DNA of 59,452 bases, counting the filler. It is 4 parts of 4 records of this genome, joined end to end, with 100 filler letters (N's around TTAATTAATTAA, not from the genome) between each part and the next. Parts side by side here need not be neighbours in the genome. Positions count along the whole stretch, not along the records: positions 33,411 to 39,346 come from DRR723986_6857; 3 more parts are not named here. The stretch is one strand, 5' to 3'. Position numbers and translations under genes: made by a program. Positions 17,137-39,631 of the stretch are shown here, piece after piece; positions within the stretch are counted from its first letter, which is position 1; every line of letters starts with the position of its first letter. The notes under the pieces were generated by a model, which saw nothing but the letters and a program-made list of their open reading frames with translations, ran no database searches and was not told the origin of the DNA.

Positions 17137-17181
17137 TGGCCTCTCCTTGCGTGGTTACATGTGCCGGTATAGGCATGTGGC

Positions 17182-17883: not shown

Positions 17884-17979
17884 CCACACGCGGTGCCCGC
17901 TCTGGCACAGGCGGCAAAACTGCCTTAAGTAATGGGCAACACGCAAAGCGACAGTAAAGCGACAGAAAGGCCAGACCCC

Positions 17980-20063: not shown

Positions 20064-20158
20064 ATGCAGTCTCTAATATAACTGCCACCCAGCATGGCCC
20101 AACACAGCGCCGCCCGGCGCGCGCAAATGCGACCTGCGGCAATGTCGCCTTTGGCGGC

Positions 20159-20746
20159 TTAAACCGGGGTGGCGGCGCCAGGCGGTGTGGCGGGCGGCGT
20201 GGCGGGCGCCATCAGGCTAAGATGCGTATCGCCATACCGGCGCTGGCCCAACAGCACAAAGCCCGGCGGCGCAGGCTGGGGGCTGTTTTCCTCGCATATA
20301 ATTACCGCATTTGGCGCCAGCCAGCCACGCGATTGCAACAGCGCAGGCAGGCTATCGGCCAGCCCCTTGCCATAGGGGGGATCCATGAAAACCAAATCAA
20401 CCGGGTGCACCGCGGGCGGCAGTTTATCGGCCGCGCAGGCCAGCACGGTGGCATCGGCCTGCCGCCTGGCCTTGGCCAGGTTTTCGGCGATCAAACGCTG
20501 CGCCACGCGGCCATTATCCACAAATGTCGCATGCACCGCCCCGCGCGAAAGCGCCTCGAGGCCCAGCGCGCCGGTTCCGGCAAACAGATCCAGCACCCGC
20601 GCCCCTTGGGGCAGGCCATGGCCCTGCAAGATGCTAAACAGCGCCTCGCGCACGCGGTCGGGGGTGGGGCGCAAATGCGCGCCCTGATCCCCCCGGCCCA
20701 CGCTGGCCAAGGCAAGGCCGCGGTGCTGGCCTGCGATGATCCTCAC
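20159..20746 (-). CDS. rsmD: 16S rRNA m2G966 methyltransferase
   Basis: MRIIAG, RPTPDRVREALF, LDLFAGTGALGLEALSRGA, DPPY, YGDT. Confidence 0.95.
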   Translation of the reverse strand: MRIIAGQHRGLALASVGRGDQGAHLRPTPDRVREALFSILQGHGLPQGARVLDLFAGTGALGLEALSRGAVHATFVDNGRVAQRLIAENLAKARRQADATVLACAADKLPPAVHPVDLVFMDPPYGKGLADSLPALLQSRGWLAPNAVIICEENSPQPAPPGFVLLGQRRYGDTHLSLMAPATPPATPPGAATPV

Positions 20747-21957: not shown

Positions 21958-22054
21958 CCACTGATCTCCCAAATATATCATTGGTCTTGCACTACGCGCG
22001 ACCCTATATCCTTGCCCGTATGAAACGCAAACCCAAGCGACGAGGGATTTCCAA

Positions 22055-22543
22055 ATGACGATTTCCGTAGGTGACAAACTGCCCGAGGCCACATTGGTGA
22101 TGTTGGGCGAGGCAGGCCCGCAGCAAGTGAAAGTGTCCGAGAAAACCGCAGGGCGCAAAGTGGCGCTGTTTGCTGTGCCCGGCGCCTTTACCCCCACCTG
22201 CCATTCGGCCCATGTGCCCAGCTTTATCCGCACCAAAGACCAGTTTGCCGAAAAAGGCGTAGATGAAATTATCTGCGTCAGCGTCAACGATCCTTTCGTG
22301 ATGAAAGCATGGGGCGAGGCCACTGGCGCCAATGCCGCAGGCATCACCATGCTGGCCGATGCCGATAGCAGCTTTACCAATGCCATTGGCATGGCCTTCG
22401 ATGCCCCGCCCGCGGGCCTTTTGGCGCGCTCAAAGCGCTATGCGATGCTGGTGGAAGACGGGGTTGTAACCCAGTTCCTGCCCGAAGAAGGCCCAGGCGT
22501 TTGCGAAATATCGGCCGGCGAATCGCTGTTGGCCAAACTTTGA
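22055..22543 (+). CDS. Peroxiredoxin (Prx5 / redoxin type)
   Basis: PGAFTPTCHSAH, SVNDPFVM, RSKRY. Confidence 0.93.
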   Translation: MTISVGDKLPEATLVMLGEAGPQQVKVSEKTAGRKVALFAVPGAFTPTCHSAHVPSFIRTKDQFAEKGVDEIICVSVNDPFVMKAWGEATGANAAGITMLADADSSFTNAIGMAFDAPPAGLLARSKRYAMLVEDGVVTQFLPEEGPGVCEISAGESLLAKL

Positions 22544-22625
22544 CGCGACGGCGGGCGCGCATCTGCTTGACAGCGCCGCGCCCGCCCGAAACTCTGCCTG
22601 CATGGATCAGCGGGGAGGGCTGGAT

Positions 22626-24590: not shown

Positions 24591-25234
24591 CCCGCCAGCA
24601 TCCGCAGGCCCTGGGTGACATCGGTGCGCACCGCAAGGCGCAGGCCCGGTTCGTCGCCCGCGCGCAAAGCGGCCAAAATCAGCCTGTGGTTATGGGGCGG
24701 CTCTTTGCGCTGCAGCCGCCCGTATAGCCGCCGCATTGTGGGGCCCAGCTGCAACCACACGGTTTCGGCCATGGCCAGCATGGCCGGGGCCTGGGCGCGC
24801 AAATACAAGGTGCGGTGAAATTCCAGGTTGGTGCGAATATAGCCCACCGCATCTTGTTTCACGACCATTTCACTGACGCTGGCATTGATGGTTTGCAACC
24901 GCTCGATCAGGGCCAGGTGGGCGCGCGGCAGGGCACGGCTGGCCAGCTCTACCTCGATCAGGCTGCGCAGCGCGGCCAGCTCTTCGATTCGGTCATTGGA
25001 CAATTCCGGCGTTGAAACCCGCCCCGAGCTGCTAAGCGTCAGCGCGCCTTCGGCCACCAGGCGCCGCACCGCCTCGCGCGCAGGCGTCATCGAGACGCCA
25101 AATTCCTTGCCAATGCCCCGCAGTGTCAGCGCCTGGCCCGGTGCCATATCACCATGCATGATTCGCGTGCGCAGCCCGCGATACACGCGATCATGCGCCG
25201 ATGGGGTTGGATCTGGGCGGGATGTGACAAGCAT
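24587..25234 (-). CDS. GntR/FCD family transcriptional regulator
   Basis: GVSMTPAREAVRRL HTH; NLEFH and HNH in FCD domain. Confidence 0.9.
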   Translation of the reverse strand: MLVTSRPDPTPSAHDRVYRGLRTRIMHGDMAPGQALTLRGIGKEFGVSMTPAREAVRRLVAEGALTLSSSGRVSTPELSNDRIEELAALRSLIEVELASRALPRAHLALIERLQTINASVSEMVVKQDAVGYIRTNLEFHRTLYLRAQAPAMLAMAETVWLQLGPTMRRLYGRLQRKEPPHNHRLILAALRAGDEPGLRLAVRTDVTQGLRMLAG

Positions 25235-25265
25235 GGGTGATATGTGATCACAAACCAGGGGCAGG

Positions 25266-25961
25266 TCAATCCACGAATCGGTAGCTGTGCAACCCTGCCC
25301 CATGCTGGCGCAACCATTGCCGCGGCGGGCGATAATCGCCGTAAAGCTGCTGCACCAAGGCCCAGAACGCAGGCGAGTGATTCATTTCGCGCAAATGCGC
25401 CACCTCGTGGGCGGCAACATAGCGCAGCACATCGGGGGGCGCCATGATCAGCCGCCACGAATACATCAGCCCCGCATCCGCCGTGCATGACCCCCAGCGC
25501 GAGCGCGTATCGCGCAGGCTAAGCCGCTGGTAGCCACGCCCCAAACGGCTGGCATAATGATCCGAGGTCGCCACCAGCCGTTCGCGGGCAAGCACCTTTA
25601 AAAAGCCCTGCAAACGCGCAGCCAGCCCCGCCCCGCCCCGCGGCACCAGCAGGCAATCGCCCTGTATCTGTGGGCTGCGCCCGCTTTCGGCCTGTTGCAA
25701 CCGCAGCATCTGCCCCTCAACCGGCAGCAAGGCCCCCAGCGCCACGGGCCTGTGGCCGGGGGCATCGGCCAAATGCTGGCGCAGCCAATCGGCTTTTTCC
25801 TCGGCAAAGGCCAGGCCCTGCGCCACAGGCACATGGGTGGGTATCGTCAGCGTGACGCTGCGATCTAGCCGCGACAGGCGCAGCGACATGCGCTTGGCCC
25901 GACCAGATTTTTTCAGCAAAACCTCGATAGGAGGGTTGCCGCCAATCAGATGTTTGCCCAT
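25266..25961 (-). CDS. M48/YgjP-like metal-dependent hydrolase
   Basis: RSRWGSC, YVAAHEVAHL (HExxH), NHSPAFW; start set at MGKHLIG. Confidence 0.88.
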   Translation of the reverse strand: MGKHLIGGNPPIEVLLKKSGRAKRMSLRLSRLDRSVTLTIPTHVPVAQGLAFAEEKADWLRQHLADAPGHRPVALGALLPVEGQMLRLQQAESGRSPQIQGDCLLVPRGGAGLAARLQGFLKVLARERLVATSDHYASRLGRGYQRLSLRDTRSRWGSCTADAGLMYSWRLIMAPPDVLRYVAAHEVAHLREMNHSPAFWALVQQLYGDYRPPRQWLRQHGAGLHSYRFVD

Positions 25962-26072
25962 ATCCAGCCCGATCAAATGCCGCATTTGCGACATAGCCTT
26001 TGACACACCGCCCCCGTTATGGCAGGGGACGCGGATTGCCCACAAGACAAGAGATACAAAAGAGGGATCTCC

Positions 26073-26396
26073 ATGGCCAAGGAAGAATGGGGCGTAAAGC
26101 GCGTGTGCCCGACCACGGGGAAACGCTTTTACGACCTGAACAAATCGCCGATCGTCAGCCCCTACACGGGGGAAGTGGTTGAATTGGATACCGGCAAGCG
26201 CAGCATGATTGCAGCCGATGCCGAGGATGCAGCGACCAAGAAAATGAAAGTCGCCGATGTGGCGGATAGTGATGATGATCTGCTCGACGATGATGATGTC
26301 GACATGGATCTTGATGATGATCTGCTGGAAGAAGACGACGACGACAATGTCTCGCTTGACGAGCTGACAGATGTGGCATCGGAAGACGAAGATTAA
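26073..26396 (+). CDS. TIGR02300 (FYDLN-acid) family protein
   Basis: MAKEEWGVKRVCPTTGKRFYDLN plus very acidic C-terminus. Confidence 0.92.
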   Translation: MAKEEWGVKRVCPTTGKRFYDLNKSPIVSPYTGEVVELDTGKRSMIAADAEDAATKKMKVADVADSDDDLLDDDDVDMDLDDDLLEEDDDDNVSLDELTDVASEDED

Positions 26397-26485
26397 ATAA
26401 CACACCGCGGGCGGTTTTTTTCGCTTGATCCCGCCCGCGGCTTTGCCTAGATACCGGCGCACAGGCGGCAACGCCTGAAAATGAT

Positions 26486-26515
26486 GGGGCCTTAGCTCAG
26501 TTGGGAGAGCGCTTG
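26486..26515 (+). tRNA. tRNA-Ala, 5' fragment truncated at contig end (probably GGC; anticodon not visible)
   Basis: GGGGCCTTAGCTCAGTTGGGAGAGCGCTTG = acceptor stem, D arm and start of anticodon stem; upstream TTGATC-17nt-TAGATA promoter-like spacing. Confidence 0.85.
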
Positions 26516-26615
26516 NNNNNNNNNNNNNNNNNNNNNNNNNNNNNNNNNNNNNNNNNNNNTTAATTAATTAANNNNNNNNNNNNNNNNNNNNNNNNNNNNN
26601 NNNNNNNNNNNNNNN
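26516..26615. other. Artificial contig linker 1
   Basis: N44-TTAATTAATTAA-N44 (stops in all six frames). Confidence 0.98.
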
Positions 26616-26691
26616 GGACAACATGGTGCGGATGCCGCTGGAACGGATGTTCCTGGCCCTGCGCCGGAACAAAGCGGCGGGGGCGAACTGA
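26616..26691 (+). CDS. 3' end of upstream ABC transporter permease (partial)
   Basis: ...DNMVRMPLERMFLALRRNKAAGAN*; TGATG overlap with the next permease. Confidence 0.6.
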
Positions 26692-27659
26692 TGGATTATA
26701 TGACGCTCATCCAGCTGCTCGACAGCTCTGTCCGTCTGGCGACACCTTTGTTGCTGGCCTGTCTTGCGGGGCTTTTCAGCGAACGCGCGGGCATTTTTGA
26801 CATCGGCCTTGAGGGCAAGATGCTGGCCGCCGCGTTCTTTTCCGCTGCGCTGGCTTCTGTCACCGGCTCCGTCTGGCTTGGCCTTCTGGCAGGCATCGGT
26901 GCATCGCTGATGCTCAGCGCGCTGCACGGGGTCGCCTCCATCACCTTCCGCGGCAATCAGTTGATCTCTGGTGTGGCGATCAATTTCCTTGCCGCTGGCA
27001 TGACTGTGCTGATTGCGCAGGATTGGTTCAAACAGGGCGGGCGCACGCCCTCGCTGACGGGGGATGCAAGGTTTGAGGGGATCACCCTGCCCGGCGCAGA
27101 CGCGGTGGCGACTGTGCCAATCATCGGCCCGCTCTATTCGGAACTGATCTCGGGCCATTCCATTTTGGTCTACATGGCATTGGCCGCTGTGCCACTGACA
27201 TGGTGGCTGCTCTACCGCACCCGCTTTGGCCTGCGTCTGCGGGCGGTGGGGGAAAACCCCGCGGCGGTGGACACGGCCGGTGTTTCGGTGATCGGGCTGC
27301 GCTATGCCGCCGTAGCGATCTGCGGCATCCTGTGCGGCATTGCCGGCGCATACCTCAGCACGGCCTTGCAGGCCGGTTTTGTCAAAGACATGTCTGCCGG
27401 GCGCGGGTTTATCGCACTGGCCGCACTGATCTTTGCCAAGTGGCGGCCATGGTATGCGCTTTGGGCGACATTGCTGTTTGGTCTGTTTGGCGCACTGGAA
27501 ACCCGCCCCGACGTGATCGAAGGTGTGATCGGCATGAAGGTGCAAGGACAGCTTTTGGGCGCTTTGCCCTACCTGATGACGGTGATCATTCTGGCCGGTT
27601 TTGTCGGCAAGGCGATTCCCCCCCGCGCTGGCGGTGAACCCTACGTCAAGGAACGCTAA
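26691..27659 (+). CDS. Nucleoside/purine-type ABC transporter permease
   Basis: RLATPLLLA, SERAGIFDIGLEG, GLRLRAVGENP, GRGFIALAALIF. Confidence 0.88.
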   Translation: MDYMTLIQLLDSSVRLATPLLLACLAGLFSERAGIFDIGLEGKMLAAAFFSAALASVTGSVWLGLLAGIGASLMLSALHGVASITFRGNQLISGVAINFLAAGMTVLIAQDWFKQGGRTPSLTGDARFEGITLPGADAVATVPIIGPLYSELISGHSILVYMALAAVPLTWWLLYRTRFGLRLRAVGENPAAVDTAGVSVIGLRYAAVAICGILCGIAGAYLSTALQAGFVKDMSAGRGFIALAALIFAKWRPWYALWATLLFGLFGALETRPDVIEGVIGMKVQGQLLGALPYLMTVIILAGFVGKAIPPRAGGEPYVKER

Positions 27660-27798
27660 GTTTCGGCCCCCCGAAACGGGGGCCAGACAGCCCAAATCAG
27701 CGGCAGATAAGTCCAGTTTATCAAGGGTGATGAGCCCATTTCGCTGCGAGGTATCAGGTATGGTTGATTTCCCGCGTTAACTTGCGCTAAGGGATGCC

Positions 27799-28713
27799 AT
27801 GCAAATCTACCTCCCCATCGCCGAGGTTTCGGTCAATGCCTTCCTTCTGTTGGGGCTCGGCGGCCTTGTTGGCATCCTGTCCGGCATGTTCGGCGTGGGC
27901 GGCGGCTTTTTGATGACGCCGCTGTTGTTCTTTATCGGCATCCCGCCCGCCGTGGCTGTGGCCACCGAGGCGAACCAGATTGTGGCCTCCTCCTTCTCCG
28001 GCGTTCTTGCCCATTTCAAGCGAAGGACCGTGGATCTCAGGATGGGCACGGTGCTGCTGATCGGGGGTCTGATCGGTGCGGCACTGGGTGTGATGGTGTT
28101 CAACTACCTCAAGGCGCAGGGTCAGGTCGATCTGCTGGTCAAGCTTTGCTATGTCGTGTTTCTGGGTGTCATCGGCGGGCTGATGTTCTTTGAATCGCTC
28201 AAGGCGATCCGCAACACCAAACGCGGCAAACCGCCCGCCCGCAAGAAACACAACTGGATCCACGGGTTGCCGTTCAAGATGCGCTTTCGGGTGTCGGGGC
28301 TTTATATCTCAGTGATCCCGCCTGTGGTCGTTGGTATTGCCGTGGGCATTCTGGCCGCGATCATGGGTGTTGGCGGCGGCTTTATCATGGTGCCTGCAAT
28401 GATCTATCTGCTGGGCATGCCGACCAAAGTGGTTGTGGGCACATCCCTGTTCCAGATTATCTTTGTGACCGCATTCACCACCATGCTGCACGCGACGACC
28501 AACTATACCGTGGACATCGTATTGGCGGTACTGCTGCTGGTGGGCGGTGTGATCGGCGCACAGATCGGCACCCGGATCGGGGTCAAGATGAAGGCCGAAC
28601 AATTGCGTATCCTGCTGGCGCTGATGGTGCTGGCTGTCTGCGGCAAGCTGGCGCTGGATCTGCTTTTGCAGCCAAGTGAGGTGTTCTCGCTTGGTGCGGC
28701 AGGTGGCCACTGA
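27799..28713 (+). CDS. TauE/SafE (sulfite exporter) family membrane protein
   Basis: MQIYLPIAE, repeated GVGGGF motifs, VGTSLFQI. Confidence 0.9.
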   Translation: MQIYLPIAEVSVNAFLLLGLGGLVGILSGMFGVGGGFLMTPLLFFIGIPPAVAVATEANQIVASSFSGVLAHFKRRTVDLRMGTVLLIGGLIGAALGVMVFNYLKAQGQVDLLVKLCYVVFLGVIGGLMFFESLKAIRNTKRGKPPARKKHNWIHGLPFKMRFRVSGLYISVIPPVVVGIAVGILAAIMGVGGGFIMVPAMIYLLGMPTKVVVGTSLFQIIFVTAFTTMLHATTNYTVDIVLAVLLLVGGVIGAQIGTRIGVKMKAEQLRILLALMVLAVCGKLALDLLLQPSEVFSLGAAGGH

Positions 28714-29480
28714 TGCGGATGCTTTTGCCTTTGTTGCTGGCGGCGTTGTTTCTGGCTTTGCCAGCGCGGGCCAACGAAGAGATTGTTTTGGGTCTCAGTC
28801 AGGCTGAGGTGTCCATCACCACCAATTTCAACGGCTCCGAGATCCTCGTCTATGGCGCGGTCAAACGTGACCAACCCATTCCAGACGGACCAGAGCTGCA
28901 CGTGGTGATGACAGTGTCCGGCCCGTCCGAGCCGGTTGTCGTGCGCCGCAAGGAAAAACGGTTTGGCATCTGGGTCAATACCGAGGCTGTCGAAGTCGAC
29001 CGCGCCCCGAGCTATTATGCCGTGGTGACAAGCGGACCGATGCTCGACGTGCTGAAACGGACAGAAGACCTGCGCCACAAGGTGTCCATCCCCCGCGCGA
29101 TCCGGTCCGTGGGCGCGCCAATGGAGATTGCTGATGCCGCCAGCTTTACCGAGGCGCTGATCCGCATTCGTAAAAAGGCCGAACAATATCAGGTGATCGA
29201 AGGCGGCGTGACCGTGGACGAACAGACCCTGTTCCGCGCTGCCGTGCGCCTGCCTGCGGCTCTGACCGAAGGTGCCTATGACACCCGGATTTTCCTGACC
29301 CGTGGTGGTAATGTGGTCGCGCAATACGAGACCATCATCGACGTGCGCAAGGTCGGGCTGGAACGTTGGCTGTTCACCCTGTCGCGGGAAAACGCGTTTC
29401 TCTATGGCTTGATGTCACTGGCCATTGCCATCGCCGCAGGCTGGGGCGCTTCCGCGATCTTCTCGGTGTTCCGCCGGTAG
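28713..29480 (+). CDS. TIGR02186 family protein
   Basis: Signal peptide, ITTNFNG, RRKEKRFGIWVN, LFRA, KVGLE, C-terminal TM; typical partner of the TauE gene. Confidence 0.85.
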   Translation: MRMLLPLLLAALFLALPARANEEIVLGLSQAEVSITTNFNGSEILVYGAVKRDQPIPDGPELHVVMTVSGPSEPVVVRRKEKRFGIWVNTEAVEVDRAPSYYAVVTSGPMLDVLKRTEDLRHKVSIPRAIRSVGAPMEIADAASFTEALIRIRKKAEQYQVIEGGVTVDEQTLFRAAVRLPAALTEGAYDTRIFLTRGGNVVAQYETIIDVRKVGLERWLFTLSRENAFLYGLMSLAIAIAAGWGASAIFSVFRR

Positions 29481-29528
29481 TTCAAAGACCATCGGCGGCT
29501 GCGCCTGGGTGCGGGCCTAGGCTGCCCC

Positions 29529-30224
29529 CTACCCGCGTCCGATATAGGGCATCTTGGTCGCCATCACTGTCAGGAATTGCACATTCGCCTCCAGCGGCAG
29601 CTGCGCCATATGCAGCACCGATTTTGCGGCATGATCCACATCCATGGTTTGCATCTCCGGTTGCTTTTCCTTGAGCGCCGCCACCAGCTCGCTTTCGGCG
29701 TTGCCGATGTCGATTTGCCCGCAGGCGATGTTCAACTCCCGACCATCCAGCGAAAGCGACCGCGTCAATCCGGTAATCGCGTGTTTGGTTGTAGTGTAAC
29801 ACACCGATCCAGGGCGCGGCACATGGGCCGACAGTGATCCGTTGTTGATGATCCGCCCGCCGCCCTGCGCCCGCATCCGCGCAAAGGCCAGACGCGCGGC
29901 GATGAACATGCCGTTCAGGTTCACACCCATGACCTGCGCCCAGTCATCCAAGGCAACCTCATCAATCGGGCCAGCGGGGCCAAACATGCCAGCATTGTTG
30001 AACAACACATCCAGATCGCCAAAGCGGTCAAAGGCCGCCTGCATCGCATCGGCATCCGTCACATCGGCGGGCAAGGCCACTGCGTTTTTATGCTCTGCCG
30101 CCATCTCTTCCAGCACATCCGCCCGCCGCGCAATCAGCCCCACACGCCAGCCTTCGCTCAAAAACAACTCAGCCGTGGCGCGGCCAATGCCGGAGCTGGC
30201 ACCGGTGATGATAATCGACGTCAT
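29529..30224 (-). CDS. SDR family oxidoreductase
   Basis: TGASSGIG, NNAG, YTTTK, QIDIGNA. Confidence 0.9.
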   Translation of the reverse strand: MTSIIITGASSGIGRATAELFLSEGWRVGLIARRADVLEEMAAEHKNAVALPADVTDADAMQAAFDRFGDLDVLFNNAGMFGPAGPIDEVALDDWAQVMGVNLNGMFIAARLAFARMRAQGGGRIINNGSLSAHVPRPGSVCYTTTKHAITGLTRSLSLDGRELNIACGQIDIGNAESELVAALKEKQPEMQTMDVDHAAKSVLHMAQLPLEANVQFLTVMATKMPYIGRG

Positions 30225-31759
30225 GCAAAATCCTCCGTTGTGGGATCAAGGATCAGCGGCGCAGCTGGCGTGGCCCGTAGATCATCCACCACCAGCGGTC
30301 CGGTGGGTTTCGACAACCGATTGCGCACCACCCAGATCAGACGTTCCTGCGCACGGGTGATCGCCACATAGGCCAGCCGTTTCCACAGGGGCTGTCCTGC
30401 CTCCATCCGGCCCATCCGCGCAGCGGCGTATAGATCGGGCGCAAAAACCTGCACCGTTTCCCACTGGCTGCCCTGCGCCTTGTGGATGGTCACCGCCGCC
30501 CCATGCAGGAAGGTTGCCCCCATACGGGCGGCAAAGGGGATAAACGGCTCTTCCTCGTCAGGTTTTTCAATCTTCACAATGGACGCGGCAGACACCTGCG
30601 GATCTTCGGCGCCCATCACATGCAGACGGCTGAACCCCGGCTTGCGCCCCTCACCGAGAAACACCACCTGCGCCCCTTTGATCAGCCCACGCGCCTCAAG
30701 ATCGAGCCGCTTTTTGCGATGTTTCAGTGGCAGTTCGATACCGTCACAGATCAAGGGTTCTCCGGCCAGTAGCGCATCTTCGGGTGCGCCATGCACCGAC
30801 CGAAAGGCATTGATCAGTCGAATGCGCGTGGCGTTGCGCCAAACCAGCACAGGCGAGCGTGCCATCAAATCCACCTCGACCCGCTGGCCCCACACCACGC
30901 GGTCATCCTTTTTCGAGGCCGCTTCGATCATCCGTTCAAAATCCTCGAACCCCAGATCGGGATCTGCCAAAGCATGAGCCAGATCAAGGATCGGATTGTC
31001 GGCATCCTGTCGGTGAATGCGGTTGAGGGTCAGAACCCGTTTCTCCGGGAGTTTTTCAAACACCATGGTGCCGGATTGGTTGACGGGCGCAAGCTGGGCC
31101 GGATCACCAAAAAGCAGCAGCGTGGGAAAAATCTCTTTGAGGTCTTCGAATTGTTTGTCATCCAGCATCGAGGATTCATCGACAAAGCCAATGTCCAACG
31201 GCTCTTCCCGGCGTTTCCATCCGGTGATGAAATCCGATCCGCGCAACCCCGCTGCGGCCAATGCACCGGGAATGGATTTGTTCGTGGCATAAAAGGCCGC
31301 CGCACGGTCCAGCGCCAATTCCGTCAGGCCTTCAATTTCGGGGCGCTCGCCGCTGCCCGCCAGCCATTCGGCGATTTTTTCGTATTCGGGGTCATAGACA
31401 GGGGTATAGAGAATGCGGTGAATGGTGGTGGCTGGCACCCCGCGCAGCCGCAGCACCGATGCGGCCTTGTTGGTCGGCGCAAGGATCGCCAAAGTGCGTT
31501 TGTCCTTGCGCCTGCGCGACTCGTAATCGCCCGATACGACCTCAACGCCGGCTTGCTCCAACGCCTTGTAAAGCTCTGCCAGCAATAGGGTTTTTCCCGA
31601 TCCGGCCTTGCCGGTCACCGCCATCACCTGATCAGCGCCACCAGAGGGGGGCATCAACAGGCTGTCGTCCAGATCAATCCCCGCATGTCGCAGCATTTCG
31701 GTAACGCTGTCAAAAGCGGCGGCTTGGTCGTCGGAGTAGGTCACAGCGGGCAATGTCAT
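30221..31759 (-). CDS. RecD-like SF1 ATP-dependent helicase
   Basis: GKAGSGKT, APTNKAA, TIHR, DESSM, GDPAQL, TIHKAQGSQW, YVAITRA. Confidence 0.9.
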   Translation of the reverse strand: MTLPAVTYSDDQAAAFDSVTEMLRHAGIDLDDSLLMPPSGGADQVMAVTGKAGSGKTLLLAELYKALEQAGVEVVSGDYESRRRKDKRTLAILAPTNKAASVLRLRGVPATTIHRILYTPVYDPEYEKIAEWLAGSGERPEIEGLTELALDRAAAFYATNKSIPGALAAAGLRGSDFITGWKRREEPLDIGFVDESSMLDDKQFEDLKEIFPTLLLFGDPAQLAPVNQSGTMVFEKLPEKRVLTLNRIHRQDADNPILDLAHALADPDLGFEDFERMIEAASKKDDRVVWGQRVEVDLMARSPVLVWRNATRIRLINAFRSVHGAPEDALLAGEPLICDGIELPLKHRKKRLDLEARGLIKGAQVVFLGEGRKPGFSRLHVMGAEDPQVSAASIVKIEKPDEEEPFIPFAARMGATFLHGAAVTIHKAQGSQWETVQVFAPDLYAAARMGRMEAGQPLWKRLAYVAITRAQERLIWVVRNRLSKPTGPLVVDDLRATPAAPLILDPTTEDFA

Positions 31760-31816
31760 GCCGCGACACTAGAACCTTTCAGATCGAACTTGAATCGGTT
31801 TCTCGCCCCAGATCGG

Positions 31817-32536
31817 TCAGGCGACAATCAATCCCCGGCTCAGTGCACACGCCACCGCATGAGTGGTGTTCTGCGCGTTCAATTTGCTGCGCGCACTTTC
31901 GATATAGACCCGCAGCGTGTGCTCGGAGATATCCAGCTTTCTGGCGGCCTCAGCCCGGCTCAGCCCCCTCGCCAGCAGGGTCATCGCATCCAATTCTCGC
32001 GGCGACAGCGCTTTTGCGGGTTGTTCATCTTTATTCGCCACAACCTCCAGCGCCTTCTGGTTAAAATAGTGCGACAACAGGATAAAACTGTTCTGGTGCT
32101 TGCGGGTGAAAGTGGCCCATTCCGCATTCTCGCAAGAGTGATTGACCGAAAACAATGCGAACTGCCCCTTTGGCCCGCGCACAGGCACCGAATACCCTTG
32201 CGTACCGACCCCGTGCATCGCCGCCTCAACACGGAATTTCTGGGCTGCCTTCGAGCTCCAATCCAGATCGTTCCAGTTAAACGGTTCAAATCGGGAATTG
32301 CCGCCGATCAGCACCGGATCAATGCGCATATATTGTTCCTGCGCATAGCGGGCCTTCCATTCCATCGAATAGGTGGCATAGCCATAAAGCCCGTCACCGG
32401 GTCCAAAACAATAGTAGGAAACATGATCAATCTGCAGCATGTCGCGCAATTCGATACAGGCGTCTTTGAGATCTTCAATCGTGTCAGCGCGGGCCAGTGC
32501 CCTGAGGACGGGGTTCAATTTTTTTGTCGTTATCAT
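31817..32536 (-). CDS. LuxR-family regulator with autoinducer-binding domain (no adjacent luxI)
   Basis: W..RY....Y..IDPV...W...G pattern of AHL-binding domains; C-terminal LSPRE...G...LDISEHT HTH. Confidence 0.9.
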   Translation of the reverse strand: MITTKKLNPVLRALARADTIEDLKDACIELRDMLQIDHVSYYCFGPGDGLYGYATYSMEWKARYAQEQYMRIDPVLIGGNSRFEPFNWNDLDWSSKAAQKFRVEAAMHGVGTQGYSVPVRGPKGQFALFSVNHSCENAEWATFTRKHQNSFILLSHYFNQKALEVVANKDEQPAKALSPRELDAMTLLARGLSRAEAARKLDISEHTLRVYIESARSKLNAQNTTHAVACALSRGLIVA

Positions 32537-32690
32537 GACCTAAATTAGGGCGTCTTTCTTGCAATGCTGATATCTCGGCCATGGCGACCACTGCGCTGTC
32601 ATCCAGCTTGGCCGCCAGTTTTGGCATGCCGCTGGAAATCGCAAAGGTCTTGAGATCGGCCAAGACATCCAAAATCCAATCTGTCTGCAT
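32484..32690 (-). CDS. Small hypothetical protein upstream of luxR
   Basis: 68 aa, MQTDWILDVLADLKTFA...; GAGGGG RBS; resembles from recall a small Rhodobacteraceae family. Confidence 0.6.
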   Translation of the reverse strand: MQTDWILDVLADLKTFAISSGMPKLAAKLDDSAVVAMAEISALQERRPNLGHDNDKKIEPRPQGTGPR

Positions 32691-32823
32691 CTTACACGTC
32701 CCCTCAAATATGAACAGCGGATTTACACAGCTCAGGGTTGCATCACGTCAAGCTTACGCAGCGTCAACTTGTTATCTCACCATGATGTGACCGCTTAAAC
32801 CCCAAAGCATTGATCCTGAATAC

Positions 32824-32868
32824 AAAAATGGCCTGCGAATCGTCGTCCGATCCACAGGCCATTCTTTT
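32824..32868 (-). terminator. Probable terminator downstream of ccr
   Basis: AAAAATGGCCTG...CAGGCCATTCTTTT inverted repeat with T/A tails. Confidence 0.55.
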
Positions 32869-32889
32869 CAATTTATCGCTAACCGGAGG

Positions 32890-33310
32890 TTAACGTGCGT
32901 CGAGCGCGTCTTCCAATGTGCGCAGGCCGGTTGTCGGCGCCTGCACCAGCACGGACATATTGCCCGGCTTATGTTCGTTGCGCATCATCTTCATGTGCGC
33001 CTCGGGCAGATCAGCCCATGTGAACACTTCGGACATGCACGGATCAAGGCGACGCTCCAGCATCAGGTTGTTGGCCGCCGAAGCCTGCTTGAGATGGGCA
33101 AAGTGGCTGCCCTGCAAACGCTTCTGATGCATCCACATGTAGCGCACGTCAAACGTCAGGTTGAAACCGGAGGTGCCCGCACAGATGACAACCATGCCGC
33201 CCTTTTTCACCACGAAAGTGGAAACAGGGAAAGTTGCCTCGCCGGGGTGTTCAAACACCATATCGACATTCACGCCTTTACCGGTGATGTCCCAGATCGC
33301 CTTGCCGAAC
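32890..33310 (-). CDS. ccr: Crotonyl-CoA carboxylase/reductase, 3' part (truncated by contig end)
   Basis: VFEHPGEATFPVS, GGMVVICAGTSG, DVRYMWMHQKRLQGSHFA, HKPGNM. Confidence 0.92.
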
Positions 33311-33410
33311 NNNNNNNNNNNNNNNNNNNNNNNNNNNNNNNNNNNNNNNNNNNNTTAATTAATTAANNNNNNNNNNNNNNNNNNNNNNNNNNNNNNNNNN
33401 NNNNNNNNNN
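33311..33410. other. Artificial contig linker 2
   Basis: N44-TTAATTAATTAA-N44. Confidence 0.98.
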
Positions 33411-33525
33411 GCAATAAAGGCATTGCGCGCTGCTGCCGGGTGCGGACCCCAAGGGCCGTTTGCGTGCACCCCGGTATCCGTGACTGTTAACACAAGGCGG
33501 CGCGCCGCCTATCATGGGTGCTATC

Positions 33526-34896
33526 ATGCTGCAAAACGATCATCTGGCCCAATGGGACCGGGAAAACTTTTTTCACCCCTCGACACATCTGGCAGAATTC
33601 GCCCGTGGCGATCTGCCCCATCGCGTGATCACCGGCGGCGAGGGCTGCCATATCACCGACCGCGAAGGCAAGCGCTGGCTGGATGCCTTTGCCGGGCTTT
33701 ATTGCGTGAACGTGGGCTATGGCCGCCAGGAAATTGCCGAAGCCATTGCCGCCCAGGCGCGCGAGCTGGCTTATTATCATGCCTATGTCGGGCATGGCAC
33801 CGAGGCCTCGATCACGCTGGCAAAAATGATCCTCGATCGCGCGCCTGCGCATATGTCGAAGGTGTATTTTGGCCTGTCTGGCTCTGATGCCAATGAAACC
33901 AACATCAAGCTGGTTTGGTATTACAACAACGTGCTGGGGCGGCCTGAGAAAAAGAAAATCATCTCGCGCTGGCGGGGCTATCACGGGTCGGGGCTGATGA
34001 CGGGCTCGTTGACGGGGCTTGATCTGTTTCACAAGAAATTCGATCTGCCCCTGGCCCAGGTGCTGCATACCGAGGCTCCTTATTACTATCGTCGTGCCGA
34101 TCTGGGCCAAAGCGAGGCCCAATTCGTGGCCCATTGCGTGGCCGAGCTTGAGGCGCTGATCGCGCGCGAAGGGGCCGATACGATTGCCGCCTTTATTGGC
34201 GAGCCGGCGCTGGGCACAGGCGGTTTGGTGCCACCGCCCGCAGGCTATTGGCCCGCCATCCAACAGGTGTTGGAGCGCCATGATATTTTGCTGATCGCCG
34301 ACGAGGTTGTCACCGGCTTTGGCCGTTTGGGCAGTATGTTTGGCTCAGATCATTACGGCATGACGCCCGATATCATCACCATCGCCAAGGGCTTAACATC
34401 GGCCTATGCGCCGCTGTCTGGCTCGATTGTCAGCGAAAAGATGTGGGCGGTGCTGGAACAGGGCACCGATGCCTATGGCCCCATCGGCCATGGCTGGACC
34501 TATTCTGCCCACCCCATCGGGGCGGCGGCGGGCGTGGCCAATTTGCAGCTGCTTGATCGGCTGAATTTGGTGGAAAACGCCAAAACCGTGGGCGCCTATT
34601 TCAAATCTGCCCTGATCGATGCCGTGGGCCATCACCCCCATGTGGGCGAGGTGCGCGGCGAGGGGCTGCTTTGCGCGGTGGAATTTGTGCAAGACCGCGA
34701 CAGCCGGCAGTTTTTCGCAGCAGAGGAAAAAATTGGCTACACGCTGAACAGCGCCCTGGCTGACCGTGGTGTGATCAGCCGTGCCATGCCGCAGGGCGAT
34801 ATATTGGGCTTTGCCCCGCCATTGTGCCTAAGCCATGCCGAGGCCGATGAAATCGCAGGTAAGCTGGCCCAGGCCGTGGCCGAGGTGCTGGGATAA
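33526..34896 (+). CDS. Class III PLP aminotransferase, DoeD/Atf-like (diaminobutyrate transaminase-like)
   Basis: [70 protein letters not shown]. Confidence 0.85.
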
Positions 34897-34949
34897 GCGC
34901 GCCCCGTGGGCTAGGGCGGGGCGGGCCTGATCTGGCCCGCCCTGGCCGC

Positions 34950-35927
34950 TTAATATAAACCGGCCGTTTTGGCGCGCAATTGCACCAGCGCCAGCACCGT
35001 GTCGATCGTGGGGGTGGGGGTTTGGGTCAGCTTGCCCAGCTCTTGCACCGCGCTGACCAGCGCATCTATTTCCATCGGCCGCCCGGCATCCAGATCTTGC
35101 CACATCGAGGTGCGATGCGCGCCAACAGCGGCCCCGCCATCGATACGCCGATCGACATCGATGGGAAATTTCACGCCCAGCTTTTCGGCAATCTCTTGGG
35201 CCTCAACCATCATGCCGCGCGCCACAGAACGGGTGCCGGGATCGGTGCAGAGCACATCCAGCGTGGCGTGGGTGAGCGCTGAAATCGGGTTGAACGACAG
35301 GTTGCCCCATAGCTTCACCCAAATTTCATCGCGGATACGCGGGCGCACGGGGGCTTTCAGCCCTGCCGCGGCCAGGGCTTGGCTGAGGGCTGTGGCGCGT
35401 TCGGATTTGCTGCCATCAGGCTCGCCCAGCGAAAAGCGATTGCCCTCGATATGTTTGATCACCCCGGGGCGGATCACCTCGGCGGCGGGATAGACCACGC
35501 AGCCCAGCACGCGATCTGGGCCAAAGCCATTCCATTGCGCATCGCCCGGATCAACCGAGGCCAGGCGCGTGCCCTCATATGGCCCCTCTAGCCCGTGGAA
35601 ATACCACCACGGCACGCCGTTCACACCGCTGACGATGGTGGTGTTTGGCCCGATCAAGGGCTGCATTTTCGCCACCACTGGCGGCACCGAATGGGCCTTT
35701 AGGGTGACGATCACATAATCCTGGGGGCCCAATTCCGCCGGGTCATCCGAGGCGCGCACCGCCACATTGGTTTCCTGGCCATCTTCTTCGATCAATGTCA
35801 GGCCATTGTCGCGCATGGCGGCCAAATGCGGGCCGCGCGCCACCAGGCTAACATCGGCACCCGCCTGCACCAGTTTGACCGCCATATAGCCGCCAATCGC
35901 ACCGGCACCAAAAATACAGATCTTCAT
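34950..35927 (-). CDS. PanE/ApbA-family reductase; candidate oxalyl-CoA reductase (PanE2-like)
   Basis: GAGAIGG, NGVPWWYF, KLWGNLSFNP, TSMWQD...EID; 10 nt downstream of the CoA ligase. Confidence 0.8.
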   Translation of the reverse strand: MKICIFGAGAIGGYMAVKLVQAGADVSLVARGPHLAAMRDNGLTLIEEDGQETNVAVRASDDPAELGPQDYVIVTLKAHSVPPVVAKMQPLIGPNTTIVSGVNGVPWWYFHGLEGPYEGTRLASVDPGDAQWNGFGPDRVLGCVVYPAAEVIRPGVIKHIEGNRFSLGEPDGSKSERATALSQALAAAGLKAPVRPRIRDEIWVKLWGNLSFNPISALTHATLDVLCTDPGTRSVARGMMVEAQEIAEKLGVKFPIDVDRRIDGGAAVGAHRTSMWQDLDAGRPMEIDALVSAVQELGKLTQTPTPTIDTVLALVQLRAKTAGLY

Positions 35928-35937
35928 TCCAGCCCCC

Positions 35938-37470
35938 TTAGCCCGTCAGGCCCAGTTTTTCGGCCATGCCGATACGCTGGATTTTGCCTGTAGCGCCTTT
36001 GGGGATTTCATCCAAAATTACCACGCTGCGGGGCACTTTGAAATCAGCCACGCTTTGGGCGGTAAATTCGCGGATGGCGCGTTCGTCTAGGGTCGAGCCC
36101 TCTTTCAGCACGACGGCTGCGGCAATCTCTTCGCCCAATTTGGGGTGGGGCACGGCAAAACACACCACTTGGGCAATGTCAGGATGCGCCAGCATCACGG
36201 CATCCACCTCGAGCGGGCTGATTTTTTCGCCACCACGGTTGATGATTTCTTTCAGCCGGCCTGTCAGGCGCAAATAGCCTTCATCATCGAATGCGCCCTG
36301 GTCGCCCGTGCGAAACCAGCGTTTGCCTTCGGCCATGAAAAACGCGCTTTCATTGGCTTTGGGGTTGCCCTCATAGCCCGGGGTGACGTTGGGGCCTGAA
36401 ATCACCACTTCGCCCGTGGCACCATCGCCCAGCAGCGTATCGGCGGTTTCATCGGCGATGCGCACCTCAGGGCCTGCGGCCACACCCACCGAGCCGGGCT
36501 TTTGCGCGCGCGGCGGCAGGGGGTTGCAGCACATCTGGTGGGTGGCCTCGGTCATGCCATAGGCCTCGATCACGGGGGCGGAAAAGGTTTCCACCAAGGC
36601 GGTCATCACGGGCGCGGGCAGCGAGGCCGAAGACGAGCGCAAAAAGCGCAAGGGCGCGTTGGCAATGATGTCTTTGTTGCGCTCGGCGCGGGCCAAAATG
36701 GCCTGATGCATGGTGGGCACAGCCGTGTACCAGCTGGGGCGCACCTCGTCGAGCTGGGCAAAAAAGCGCAAGGCGTTAAAGCCCGGCGCGCATGAGATTT
36801 GCGCGCCTGCCGCCAGCGAGGCCGAAACCGCCGCAATCAGCCCGTGGATGTGAAACAGTGGCATCACATTCAAACAGCGGTCTTCGGGGCCGAGCGCCAG
36901 CGATGCGGTGATATTGCGCGCCGATGCGCATAGGTTTGATTGCAAAAGCGGCACGATTTTGGGCCGCGATGTGGTGCCCGAGGTGTGCAAGATCAGCGCA
37001 ACATCATCGGGGGCGGGGGCTGTGGTATCGGCCTGGCCCACAGGCGCGTCGGCACTTAGGGTGAAATAGCCCGCGGGCGCATCATCCGGGGCCGACAGGC
37101 GCAAGATCGCCACCCCAAACTGGGCCGCGGCCGCCAAGGCGGGGCCATCGTAGCCCGCCTCGACAATCAGTGCCTTGGCGCGCAGGTCTTCCAGGTAAAA
37201 GGCGTATTCTTCTTCGCGATAGGCCGGGTTAAGGGGGGCGGTGGTGGCCACCTGCGCCACCGTGAAAAACGCCGTGGCCATTTCCGGGCCATTGGGCAGC
37301 ACGATGGCCACCCGATCACCACGGCCAATGCCCAAGGCATGCAGGCTGGCGGTGATCTCGGCGCTCAGCGCGCGCAAGGCGCCATAGCTAAGCCAGGCGC
37401 GCCCAGGCGCCCCGATGGCGGGGGCCTCGGCCGGGTGGGGGGCGATAAGGGCAGAAATTGTATCGGTCAT
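35938..37470 (-). CDS. Acyl-CoA synthetase; candidate oxalate--CoA ligase (AAE3/Pcs60/Oxs-like)
   Basis: APLNPAY, LHTSGTTSRPK, MPLFHIHGL, WYTAVPTMHQ, RSSSASL, EAYGMTEATHQM, FRTGDQG, INRGGEKISP, PKGATGKIQR. Confidence 0.85.
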   Translation of the reverse strand: MTDTISALIAPHPAEAPAIGAPGRAWLSYGALRALSAEITASLHALGIGRGDRVAIVLPNGPEMATAFFTVAQVATTAPLNPAYREEEYAFYLEDLRAKALIVEAGYDGPALAAAAQFGVAILRLSAPDDAPAGYFTLSADAPVGQADTTAPAPDDVALILHTSGTTSRPKIVPLLQSNLCASARNITASLALGPEDRCLNVMPLFHIHGLIAAVSASLAAGAQISCAPGFNALRFFAQLDEVRPSWYTAVPTMHQAILARAERNKDIIANAPLRFLRSSSASLPAPVMTALVETFSAPVIEAYGMTEATHQMCCNPLPPRAQKPGSVGVAAGPEVRIADETADTLLGDGATGEVVISGPNVTPGYEGNPKANESAFFMAEGKRWFRTGDQGAFDDEGYLRLTGRLKEIINRGGEKISPLEVDAVMLAHPDIAQVVCFAVPHPKLGEEIAAAVVLKEGSTLDERAIREFTAQSVADFKVPRSVVILDEIPKGATGKIQRIGMAEKLGLTG

Positions 37471-37508
37471 GGTGTCATGCTCCGTTTGAATTGGGCGGAA
37501 AGGGCGGG

Positions 37509-39095
37509 CTACAGGGCGTAGGCCATACCGTCCGAACGTGGGTCTGTTGCGGCCTCGAAATGGCCATCGGGATGGGCCAAAACGGCGCCTGCGTGGCCCA
37601 TAAGGCTGGAAAAGGCGGGGGTTAATTCCACCTGATGGCCCGCCGCGCGCAAGGCGCTGATCAGCGCTGCATCGGCGTTTTCCTCGATTTTCAGGCTGGT
37701 TGTGTCATCGCCCCAGGTTTTGCCAAGCAGCCAGCGCGGGGCGGTGATGGCCTGTTGCAGCGGCGTGCCAAACTGGGCGTAGCGGCTAAAGACGGCGGCC
37801 TGGGTCTGGGGCTGGCCTTCGCCGCCCATGGTGCCGTAAGATAAAACGCGCCCATCGTTCAACACGGCCATTGCCGGGTTGAGCGTATGAAAGGGGCGCC
37901 GCCCCGGGGCCAGCTGGTTGGGGCCGGGCGCCATGGAAAAGCCCGCCCCGCGGTTTTGAAACACCACGCCGGTGTCGGGGCAGGTCAAGCCGCTGCCAAA
38001 TTCCCAAAAGACGCTTTGAATGAACGATACGACCGTGCCGTCTTTGTCGGCGGCCCCCATCCAGATGGTATCGCCCGCCTTGGCCTGATGCGGCCAGGGC
38101 AAAGCCCGCGCCATATCGACATTGGCCGCCATCTGATCCAGCGTGGCATCATCCAGCCAGTCTTGGGCGGGTTTGCGCATATTGGCAGGATCGCCCAATT
38201 CGGCATTGCGCAGGATAAAGGCCTGTTTGGTGGCCTCGATCAGGCCATGGATATGGGCAAACCCCTCGGGCGTGTCGATATTCAGGCGGTCAAACACCCC
38301 CAAAATGGCCAAAGACGACATGCCCTGCGTGGGCGGGCCCATGTTGTAAAGCGTGCCCAGCGATGTGGCGATTTCCAGCGGCTTTTGCACTTGGGCCTGA
38401 TAGGCGTGGAAATCGCCCAGCCGCAGCGGGCTGCCCATTTCTTGCAAATACGTGGCATGGGTGGCGGCGATGTCGCCGCGGTAGTAGCCATCGATGCCAT
38501 TCTCTGCGATGGCGCCCAAGGTCTGGCCCAGGGCGGTTTGCTGCAATTTGCTGCCCGTTGCGGGGGCCTGACCATTGGCCAGATAGATGGGGGCAAAGCC
38601 CGGCACATCGCGCAGCCCATCGATTTTTTCGGCGGTGGTGTCGCTTTGGTTGCGGGTGACGGCAATGCCGGTTTTGGCCAGATGGATTGCCGGCGCCAAC
38701 AGATCGGCCAGTGCCATGCCTGTGCCGCCGGGGCGCTGGGCCAGGGCAGCACCCCAGCCGCCCACGGTGCCCGGCACCGTCAGCGCCGCCAGGGCCCCGC
38801 GCGCGGGTATGGCGCTGGCATGGCCTTGGGCTGCATACCACGCTGGTGTGGCCAGGCCTGCCGCTTGCCCGCAGGCAGAAATGGCAACGGGCGCCTGGCC
38901 TTTGTGGCGGATCAGCCAAAACCCATCGCCGCCGATACTGTTCATATGCGGGTATACCACGGCAATGGCCGCGGCTGCGGCCACCATGGCCTCGATCGCG
39001 CTGCCGCCTGCCTCTAGCACATCGGCGCCCACTTTGGTTGCAATGCGGTGCGGTGCGGTGAAAGCACCGTTCAAGCCCAAGGCCGTTCCTATCAT
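37509..39095 (-). CDS. Gamma-glutamyltransferase-family Ntn hydrolase; HpxW-like oxamate amidohydrolase
   Basis: GGSAIEAMVAAAAAIAVVYPHMN, GGDGFW, GDTIWMG (autocleavage Thr), FHTLNP, GGEGQPQTQ, PRWLLGKTWG, ATDPRSDG; closely follows the recalled Klebsiella HpxW pattern. Confidence 0.8.
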   Translation of the reverse strand: MIGTALGLNGAFTAPHRIATKVGADVLEAGGSAIEAMVAAAAAIAVVYPHMNSIGGDGFWLIRHKGQAPVAISACGQAAGLATPAWYAAQGHASAIPARGALAALTVPGTVGGWGAALAQRPGGTGMALADLLAPAIHLAKTGIAVTRNQSDTTAEKIDGLRDVPGFAPIYLANGQAPATGSKLQQTALGQTLGAIAENGIDGYYRGDIAATHATYLQEMGSPLRLGDFHAYQAQVQKPLEIATSLGTLYNMGPPTQGMSSLAILGVFDRLNIDTPEGFAHIHGLIEATKQAFILRNAELGDPANMRKPAQDWLDDATLDQMAANVDMARALPWPHQAKAGDTIWMGAADKDGTVVSFIQSVFWEFGSGLTCPDTGVVFQNRGAGFSMAPGPNQLAPGRRPFHTLNPAMAVLNDGRVLSYGTMGGEGQPQTQAAVFSRYAQFGTPLQQAITAPRWLLGKTWGDDTTSLKIEENADAALISALRAAGHQVELTPAFSSLMGHAGAVLAHPDGHFEAATDPRSDGMAYAL

Positions 39096-39317
39096 GTTGC
39101 CCCCCGTTCGCGGCCCACCCGCCCAATGCTGGTGGCCGCCCCATTTGTTATGGCGCGAATAATGACGCAGACGCGGGCAGTTTCAAGGGGGCAGGGGGCG
39201 ATGCAGGGCGCAAAGGGGGCAAGGCCCGGGCGTATAAACCCATGCGTGCGTTGATGGCCGCAATACACCTGCGGAGTTGGGTGGCATCTGCTCAGCAGCG
39301 ATCGAGGGGGGGGTGGT

Positions 39318-39346
39318 TGGAGCGGGTGAAGGGAATCGAACCCTCG
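39318..39346 (-). tRNA. tRNA-Gly, 3' fragment at contig end
   Basis: Reverse complement CGAGGGTTCGATTCCCTTCACCCGCTCCA = T arm, acceptor stem, U discriminator and CCA. Confidence 0.85.
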
Positions 39347-39446
39347 NNNNNNNNNNNNNNNNNNNNNNNNNNNNNNNNNNNNNNNNNNNNTTAATTAATT
39401 AANNNNNNNNNNNNNNNNNNNNNNNNNNNNNNNNNNNNNNNNNNNN
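39347..39446. other. Artificial contig linker 3
   Basis: N44-TTAATTAATTAA-N44. Confidence 0.98.
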
Positions 39447-39631
39447 TCGGGCAACGGCGATCCTTCAAGTTCAGCTCTTAAATCACCAGTTCAGTGCGGC
39501 ACAAGTAACACATGCCGAGTAGGCTACAGACAGCAGCGGCATACCTTCAAGTTGGGGTCAGAAATCTGTATTTAGAGTAAACCCTCATCCGAAACGCCCC
39601 ACTGTGCGTATAAACTTCGAACATCTCAACA

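Follow-up and report, generated by a model that had tools for sequence, protein, structure and literature searches.

Oxalate formed by HpxW is regarded as the end product of the Klebsiella pathway to which this enzyme belongs, and entry 5hft of the Protein Data Bank is HpxW of Klebsiella pneumoniae, an oxamate amidohydrolase. The reference list of PMC5270733 cites Hicks and Ealick 2016 on this protein. For the activation of oxalate, PMC7154664 gives a Km for oxalate of 9 µM for the bacterial ligase OXS of Methylobacterium extorquens, and PanE2 of the same species and ApbA2 of Cupriavidus necator appear in PMC7486775 and PMC8411744 as oxalyl-CoA reductases or CoA-acylating glyoxylate dehydrogenases. 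In our literature search, HpxW, AAE3/OXS and PanE2 were each met in papers of their own. Here we analysed three adjacent genes in a 59,452-nt stretch of DNA, hereafter the window, which encode a predicted HpxW-like amidohydrolase, an oxalate-CoA ligase and a PanE2-like reductase. We favour, with a probability of roughly 0.55, the reading that these genes form one operon of a marine member of the Rhodobacteraceae taking oxamate to glyoxylate; the trio combines two known enzyme modules in a way that is rarely seen. An earlier note, made from the letters of this DNA, knew of no description of the trio as one pathway, and our literature search likewise found no such paper. No study joining oxamate hydrolysis to oxalyl-CoA reduction, or describing the ligase-reductase pair of Rhodobacteraceae, was found in this search, which left most subscription journals outside, and PMC10192776 had no occurrence of ligase or reductase terms.

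The three open reading frames (ORFs) lie on the minus strand at exactly the coordinates given by the earlier note, co-oriented and separated by gaps of 38 and 10 nt (Table 1). Their GC content at third codon positions is 0.72-0.75, and on reading the sequence we found Shine-Dalgarno (SD)-like motifs before the start codons of the ligase (GGAG) and the reductase (GGGGG). In the proposed route the first enzyme, an N-terminal nucleophile (Ntn) hydrolase self-cleaved at Thr343, would convert oxamate to oxalate and ammonia. An AAE3/OXS-type ligase would then use ATP and CoA to form oxalyl-CoA from oxalate, and a PanE2-type reductase would reduce oxalyl-CoA with NAD(P)H to glyoxylate; malate synthase G is one route by which the glyoxylate could enter central metabolism. 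We infer all substrates, the co-transcription of the genes and the oxamate origin. Of the complete oxamate route claimed by the earlier note, all three enzyme assignments stood at the level of sequence; the rare joining of HpxW to the other two genes and the missing purine link, both described below, did not bear out the rest.

The first protein is, as judged from its sequence, of the HpxW type and not a true gamma-glutamyltransferase (GGT). Its GGT domain (PF01019) spans residues 25-523 (Pfam, 1.2e-120), and its score of 320.5 against TIGR00066, the canonical GGT equivalog, is under the cut-off of 357.85. The best solved match was 5hft with 273.6 bits for chain A (large) and 243.4 bits for chain B (small), followed by 2nlz with 213.6 bits and E. 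coli GGT with 163 bits. In alignments with 5hft and E. coli GGT the protein retained the GG oxyanion pair, and its Thr343 fell on the first residue of chain B of 5hft and on position 391 of the E. coli enzyme. At the equivalents of R114, N411, Q430, D433 and S462/S463, presumably the gamma-glutamyl-binding positions of E. coli GGT, the protein carries C, F, R, G and H/T, and 5hft carries S, Y, R, A and H/T. The assignment as HpxW-like made by the earlier note was thus upheld by the best solved match, the HpxW-fashion replacement of the gamma-glutamyl-binding residues and the low equivalog score, and the motifs that it quoted (GDTxWMG, PRWLLGxTWG) were all found in the translation. Some close homologues have already been labelled "oxamate amidohydrolase" by the Joint Genome Institute (JGI).

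The second protein contains AMP-binding (Pfam, 1.6e-73) and AMP-binding_C domains, and its top three solved matches are all oxalate-CoA ligases, namely AAE3 (414.8 bits), grass-pea OCS (402.8 bits) and yeast Pcs60 (352.8 bits); a malonyl-CoA synthetase, the closest enzyme of another kind, reached 197.6 bits. According to PMC8905533, the oxalate pocket of AAE3 is formed by V215-H216, C288-S289, A313-M314, H319 and K500, with Ser289, His319 and Lys500 in contact with oxalate. The equivalents of these three residues (AtAAE3 numbering) are S281, H311 and K496. Over the whole pocket the ligase reads I-H, S-S, G-M, H, K, so that five of eight positions are identical to AAE3 and three are conservatively replaced (V to I, C to S, A to G). 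The same pocket occurs in all 20 aligned ligases that are linked to a reductase gene. The ligase also shares 59% identity with a ligase of Methylobacterium bullatum whose gene adjoins a PanE2-like gene. The oxalate-CoA ligase proposed in the earlier note was therefore sustained both by the best solved matches and by the oxalate-contacting Ser, His and Lys of the AAE3 type, and the ligase motifs quoted there (HTSGTTSRPK, WYTAVPT, YGMTE..HQM) are all present in the translation.

The third protein matches the PanE subfamily NF005089 at 540.7 bits, a subfamily also matched by homologues from C. metallidurans (534 bits) and M. bullatum (436 bits), and passes the cut-off of the TIGR00745 subfamily. 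Its best solved match is 3ghy at 266 bits, and E. coli PanE reached only 27.6 bits; the links to the characterised PanE2 and ApbA2 run through 3ghy and the Methylobacterium and Cupriavidus homologues. Homologues with 53-66% identity were found in oxalate/glyoxylate clusters. The PanE2-like gene of M. bullatum (53%) is flanked on one side by an oxalate/formate antiporter-family gene (TIGR04259, 629.7 bits, cut-off 335) and a fumarylacetoacetate hydrolase (FAH) gene and on the other by the ligase gene. The homologue of Azospirillum ramasamyi (65.5%) lies on a plasmid (L184, 775334-790305) in the order oxlT, TauE/SafE, PanE2-like, CBS, pntAB, and that of Phyllobacterium zundukense (60%) stands beside gcl-hyi, pntAB, sucCD-like genes and frc. 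The claim of a PanE2-like reductase is accordingly backed by membership in a PanE subfamily found in oxalate/glyoxylate clusters and by a position beside the gene of a predicted oxalyl-CoA-forming enzyme. As a separate observation, the A. ramasamyi cluster lies near uraD, puuE, uraH and gcl, such that annotated oxalate, urate and glyoxylate genes occur together.

The distribution of the genes was determined in 401 sampled Rhodobacteraceae genomes (members of the family to which G062, the source genome of L074, belongs), with orthologue thresholds of E <= 1e-120 for the ligase, E <= 1e-70 for the reductase and E <= 1e-140 for the HpxW-like protein. The ligase was present in 99 genomes, the reductase in 103 and both in 98. 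As read from the two tables of hits, the reductase gene follows the ligase gene immediately and on the same strand in 97 of the 99 ligase genomes, at a distance of about 3-130 nt; the remaining two have the genes on separate contigs (G405) or no reductase at the threshold (G399). Reductase identity was 80-90% in most of the sample. The two genes are also neighbours in G056, G059 and G046, and the pair occurs in reverse order in 3 of 61 genomes of the order of G001. Among 20 fetched loci, TctC-TctB-TctA is encoded upstream of the pair in five, three of which have a divergent ScfR-like regulator; other upstream partners are NMT1-type ATP-binding cassette (ABC) transporters with a GntR/FadR regulator and further ABC systems. 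In five genomes checked (G119, G159, G356, G432 and G089), all matches to the oxc model TIGR03254 were below the cut-off, and malate synthase G was present in three (G119, G159 and G356). This distribution reads as that of a conserved module for oxalate uptake, activation and reduction, and the pair very probably converts oxalate to glyoxylate. Ligase and reductase would thus constitute a widespread oxalate-assimilation module independent of oxalyl-CoA decarboxylase, fed by a tripartite tricarboxylate transporter (TTT) or an ABC transporter in most genomes and, in the lineage of the window, preceded by an amidohydrolase gene.

As the earlier note had expected, automatic annotation conceals such a function: on a plasmid with an annotated homologue of the pair, the products bear no other names than 'AMP-binding protein' and '2-dehydropantoate 2-reductase'. 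If the automatic names were right, the trio would consist of a gamma-glutamyltransferase, a ligase for fatty acids or other acyl groups and a housekeeping ketopantoate reductase without any common pathway. We regard this as highly improbable. The best NCBIfam model for the ligase is indeed that of the FadD7 family, but the match is below its cut-off, and the pocket and best solved matches are of the oxalate type; the first protein scores below the GGT equivalog cut-off and has lost the gamma-glutamyl-binding residues. For the reductase the TIGR00745 match fits a ketopantoate reductase, and a separate canonical panE, the presence of which had been raised in the earlier note, was not seen in G119, the genome used as conspecific proxy for that of the trio, where only the trio's copy is above the TIGR00745 cut-off. 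Three other genomes (G159, G356 and G432) each have 2-3 further PanE-family (TIGR00745) genes. With no second copy seen in G119, the reductase may still have a housekeeping role, and this check does not separate the hypotheses. That no more than 103 of 401 genomes have the reductase, nearly always behind the ligase, argues against such a role, as does the low score of E. coli PanE.

Further findings weigh against the reading of the trio as one operon for oxamate, and most of them concern the linkage of the HpxW-like gene to the pair. That gene was present in 30 of the 401 genomes and lies within 4 kb of the pair in only five of these. No clear co-occurrence was apparent, the ligase being present in 10 of the 30 HpxW genomes versus 89 of the 371 others (raw counts, related genomes). 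At HpxW loci from species genomes (46-68% identity), in which a ligase orthologue and a PanE homologue were sought, the pair was within 10 kb in none of 80, and it was present at only 6 of 80 metagenome HpxW loci. In G356 (G356:C1:440042-444186, L083) the genes are co-oriented, but the pair has decayed beside an intact HpxW-like gene: the ligase is truncated and contains two stop codons, the reductase contains one, and a second, intact pair is located on another contig. This copy shows that the coupling of HpxW to the pair can be lost. Moreover, the trio comes without a transporter, a regulator or a gene of the purine/oxalurate pathway at its side. The conservation of the trio in other genomes considered by the earlier note was hence found for the ligase-reductase pair, which is widespread, and only a small share of the genomes have HpxW joined to the pair.

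These data bear on the possibility that only the pair is functional, in oxalate assimilation, and that the HpxW-like gene is an unrelated neighbour acting on another small amide that is imported elsewhere, placed by rearrangement beside a tRNA gene. The 89 sampled genomes with the pair and no HpxW, the absence of co-occurrence enrichment, the decayed pair of G356 and the usual company of HpxW-like genes, namely DctPQM/TauE or amidase/AtzH, are all in line with this explanation, as is the finding that the trio resides in a 5.9-kb block with differing flanks in two conspecific strains, abutting tRNA-Gly. We nevertheless consider it unlikely in view of the cases in which HpxW and the pair do occur together. 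The co-oriented trio is found in G119 (98-100% identity) and G159 (76/82/90% identity); HpxW and the pair are convergent in G432 and divergent, with TctCBA in between, in G089. Among the metagenome loci, L104 and L105 are co-oriented and L122, L123, L124 and L126 convergent. In a quick IQ-TREE analysis of 84 HpxW sequences, the co-oriented set formed one clade (support 93) within an otherwise DctPQM-linked alphaproteobacterial clade of 22 rows (99). G432 was placed elsewhere in the same 22-row clade on a long branch, and G089 fell into a betaproteobacterial amidase/AtzH clade (99). HpxW and the pair have therefore become juxtaposed independently at least twice, and probably three times. Recurrent juxtaposition within 4 kb in genomes of 2-5 Mb is hard to explain by chance, and the three architectures in separate HpxW lineages thus favour a functional link. 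The 38-nt gap with its SD site and RNA-library contigs across the junction also speak against an unrelated neighbour, and the known product of HpxW is exactly the predicted substrate of the ligase.

Distant GGT-family paralogues, 31-32% identical to the HpxW-like protein of the window, were observed at some pair loci. In G088 such a gene (L098, 5801-7654) immediately precedes the ligase-reductase pair in the same orientation, and its product has 6j3a as best solved match (709 bits); others lie near the trio in G159 (L082, 8006-9796) and G356 (L083, 14363-15865). A literature search found no paper mentioning 6J3A/6J3I.

The RNA-library contigs came from three studies and cover all three genes of the trio. 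The junction between reductase and ligase is bridged by contig X16 record 21, and that between ligase and HpxW by X17 record 30 and X14 record 5. One RNA contig also spans the junction to the convergent aminotransferase gene, so that DNA carry-over is possible, and assembled RNA contigs cannot prove a single transcript. Gaps in the cover by RNA contigs carry no weight either way. The 5.9-kb block was present at 0.26-0.44 of sampled words in 6 metatranscriptome runs from 3 studies and at >=0.90 in 13 DNA runs from 6 studies (marine, seawater and plastic metagenomes, one of which is possibly the source). The organism hence occurs in several marine, seawater and plastic-surface samples.

The usual neighbourhoods of HpxW-like genes were inspected at the 80 species-genome loci. 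DctP-DctQ-DctM genes are located upstream in 22-25 loci and a TauE/SafE permease gene directly downstream in 25, and a GntR regulator is also common; an AS-amidase is encoded in 27 loci and an AtzH-like protein in seven. The complete layout DctP-DctQ-DctM, HpxW, TauE/SafE with a GntR/FCD regulator was seen in many Alphaproteobacteria and Halomonas (e.g. L004, L005, L014, L020-L024). It would fit the import of a small amide-carboxylate and the export of an acid. The genes around HpxW in Vibrio, Marinomonas and Alteromonas encode RpiR, a class-V aminotransferase and an M20 hydrolase, a neighbourhood that in our view resembles the Klebsiella hpx purine cluster, and the clade of the window is sister (97) to this gammaproteobacterial purine-context clade. 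No hpx-like purine genes were detected near the trio (window, L081 and L082), and the link to purine/oxalurate breakdown drawn by the earlier note was not found in the vicinity of the trio. XdhB is encoded elsewhere in four of five genomes. Two further points belong to those that count against an oxamate operon: the AtzH-like gene was found in none of five genomes, and the DctPQM/TauE company of most alphaproteobacterial HpxW-like genes leaves their substrate putative.

With no oxamate-forming genes found near the trio, the route could be right and the first enzyme might free oxalate from another oxalyl amide such as oxalurate, an N-oxalyl amino acid or oxamide. The likeness to characterised HpxW is only partial, since two pocket positions differ (F for Y, G for A), and the clade of the window is separate from the gammaproteobacterial purine (hpx-like) clade. 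However, the HpxW-type substitutions R382, S361 and H403/T404 are common to both proteins and nothing favours any specific alternative substrate, and we judge this variant to be quite unlikely; oxamate remains the preferred substrate for the proposed operon.

Assignment of the trio to the Rhodobacteraceae, as made by the earlier note, holds for the contig on which the trio lies. The 5.9-kb block, which comprises the trio and a convergent aminotransferase gene (window 33411-39269), is 96.7% identical to G119:C19, and window 14000-26515 is 96% identical to G119:C3; the left contig also carries the alphaproteobacterial housekeeping genes map, rsmD, rluA and znuABC and a member of the Alph_Pro_TM family. 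The contig of the trio stops 252 nt upstream of the first ATG, within a tRNA gene. Being truncated, the gene was missed by ARAGORN, which called no tRNA in the window, and was recognised only through G119, where it continues as complete tRNA-Gly(CCC) (L081, 9929-10002). The window joins two contigs by an artificial linker (39348-39446), and on its far side the stretch 39447-57725 matches G001:C22, from a genome of another genus, at 98-99% identity. Left of 39447, DNA comparison gave no match to G001 or to two further genomes of its genus, and G119 matches the right-hand contig at no more than 65-77% and over short pieces only. GC content is about 62% in the left and about 53% in the right contig. 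DNA of two organisms is therefore mixed in the source assembly or bin. The right-hand genes for an alpha/beta hydrolase, ArsR, an ArsC-like protein, MIP and pst functions were considered as trio context and rejected: they lie beyond the linker on another organism's contig, match another genus and are absent from G119, and are therefore not neighbours of the trio. Separately, a stretch of about 107 nt at 39447-39553 has many copies of 73-89% identity scattered over G001 and G012, and looks like a repetitive extragenic palindromic (REP)- or miniature inverted-repeat transposable element (MITE)-like repeat of the right-hand genus.

Table 1. Positions of the trio and of adjoining features in the window
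Feature	Position	Strand	Length	Remarks
HpxW-like GGT-fold (Ntn) amidohydrolase gene	37509..39095	-	528 aa	PF01019
AAE3/Pcs60/OXS-type oxalate-CoA ligase gene (predicted)	35938..37470	-	510 aa	AMP-binding + AMP-binding_C
PanE2/ApbA2-like NAD(P)H reductase gene	34950..35927	-	325 aa	ApbA + ApbA_C
Promoter-like site TTGAAA-16-CATTAT	39159..39186	-		64 nt upstream of HpxW-like ATG; consensus match only
tRNA gene, 3' end	39312..39347	-		cut by contig end; tRNA-Gly CCC in conspecific genome
Artificial contig linker (N-run, TTAATTAATTAA, N-run)	39348..39446			six-frame-stop linker, not biology
Class-III (3fcr-type) omega-aminotransferase gene	33514..34896	+		convergent to trio; PF00202; 3fcr 816 bits
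Convergent intergenic spacer with GC-rich inverted repeat	34897..34949			between reductase and aminotransferase

The promoter-like site is the sole match in 34700-39347, with a mean of 0.5 in shuffled sequence, and no T-tract terminator was called in the spacer between reductase and aminotransferase (34897..34949). The aminotransferase was considered as a fourth pathway gene, converting glyoxylate to glycine, and rejected: it belongs to the block common with G119, no more than one of 20 pair loci has it, and it is an omega-transaminase of the general 3fcr type. The block of aminotransferase and trio abuts tRNA-Gly(CCC) both in the window and in G119, and its left flanks differ between the two (window 26516-33410; L081 1-3990 in G119), with window 26616-31627 matching another G119 contig at only 70%. 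The trio block thus sits in a variable region beside a tRNA gene. Near its left side we noted a LuxR-type autoinducer-binding regulator (31817-32536), with no adjoining luxI among the ORFs scanned; a 127-aa remnant of the C-terminal domain of a zinc-type alcohol dehydrogenase (32890-33273) adjoins this regulator, just left of the conserved block.

The proposed route suggests that some bacteria may carry oxamate carbon on to glyoxylate. In a wider interpretation, which we offer tentatively and at somewhat less than even odds, the trio would be an undescribed oxamate pathway recovering both nitrogen and carbon, and the pair an oxc/frc-free oxalate route in about a quarter of marine Rhodobacteraceae, fed by TTT/ABC transporters or by independently recruited HpxW-type amidohydrolases and missed by surveys based on frc/oxc markers. 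Such surveys would miss the module because oxalyl-CoA is reached by a ligase and no oxc was detected in the five genomes, and oxalate use by abundant marine bacteria may be under-counted as a result. The wide occurrence of the pair may matter more than the trio itself. Cultured relatives lend themselves to bench tests, and HpxW homologues of 74-76% identity occur in named isolates.

Comparison with the known systems places each of the three predicted enzymes close to a described one and sets the arrangement apart. Like Klebsiella HpxW, the first protein has a GGT/Ntn fold, a self-processing Thr, a long identical N-terminal motif and replaced gamma-glutamyl-binding residues. The trio lacks the RpiR, class-V aminotransferase, M20 and amidase context of HpxW relatives in gammaproteobacteria, and in contrast to Klebsiella its HpxW-like gene is followed by genes for predicted oxalate-consuming enzymes. 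The ligase shares the ANL fold, the P-loop and the oxalate-contacting Ser/His/Lys with AAE3 (Arabidopsis, 5ie0), LsOCS (6qjz), Pcs60 (yeast, 8aff) and OXS. The oxalyl-CoA of the plant and yeast enzymes, however, goes to oxalyl-CoA decarboxylase, for which no gene was detected in the five genomes examined here. As with PanE2 of M. extorquens and ApbA2 of C. necator, a reductase of the PanE/ApbA fold is encoded beside a predicted oxalyl-CoA-forming enzyme. Compared with the Methylobacterium-type cluster, the order of the two genes is reversed, with the ligase preceding the reductase, an oxc or frc partner is lacking, and the amidohydrolase takes the transporter's place at the head of the operon. 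Finally, Frc/Oxc degradation and the proposed trio route both pass through oxalyl-CoA, but the trio is predicted to activate oxalate by an ATP-dependent ligase instead of CoA transfer, and to reduce oxalyl-CoA instead of decarboxylating it.

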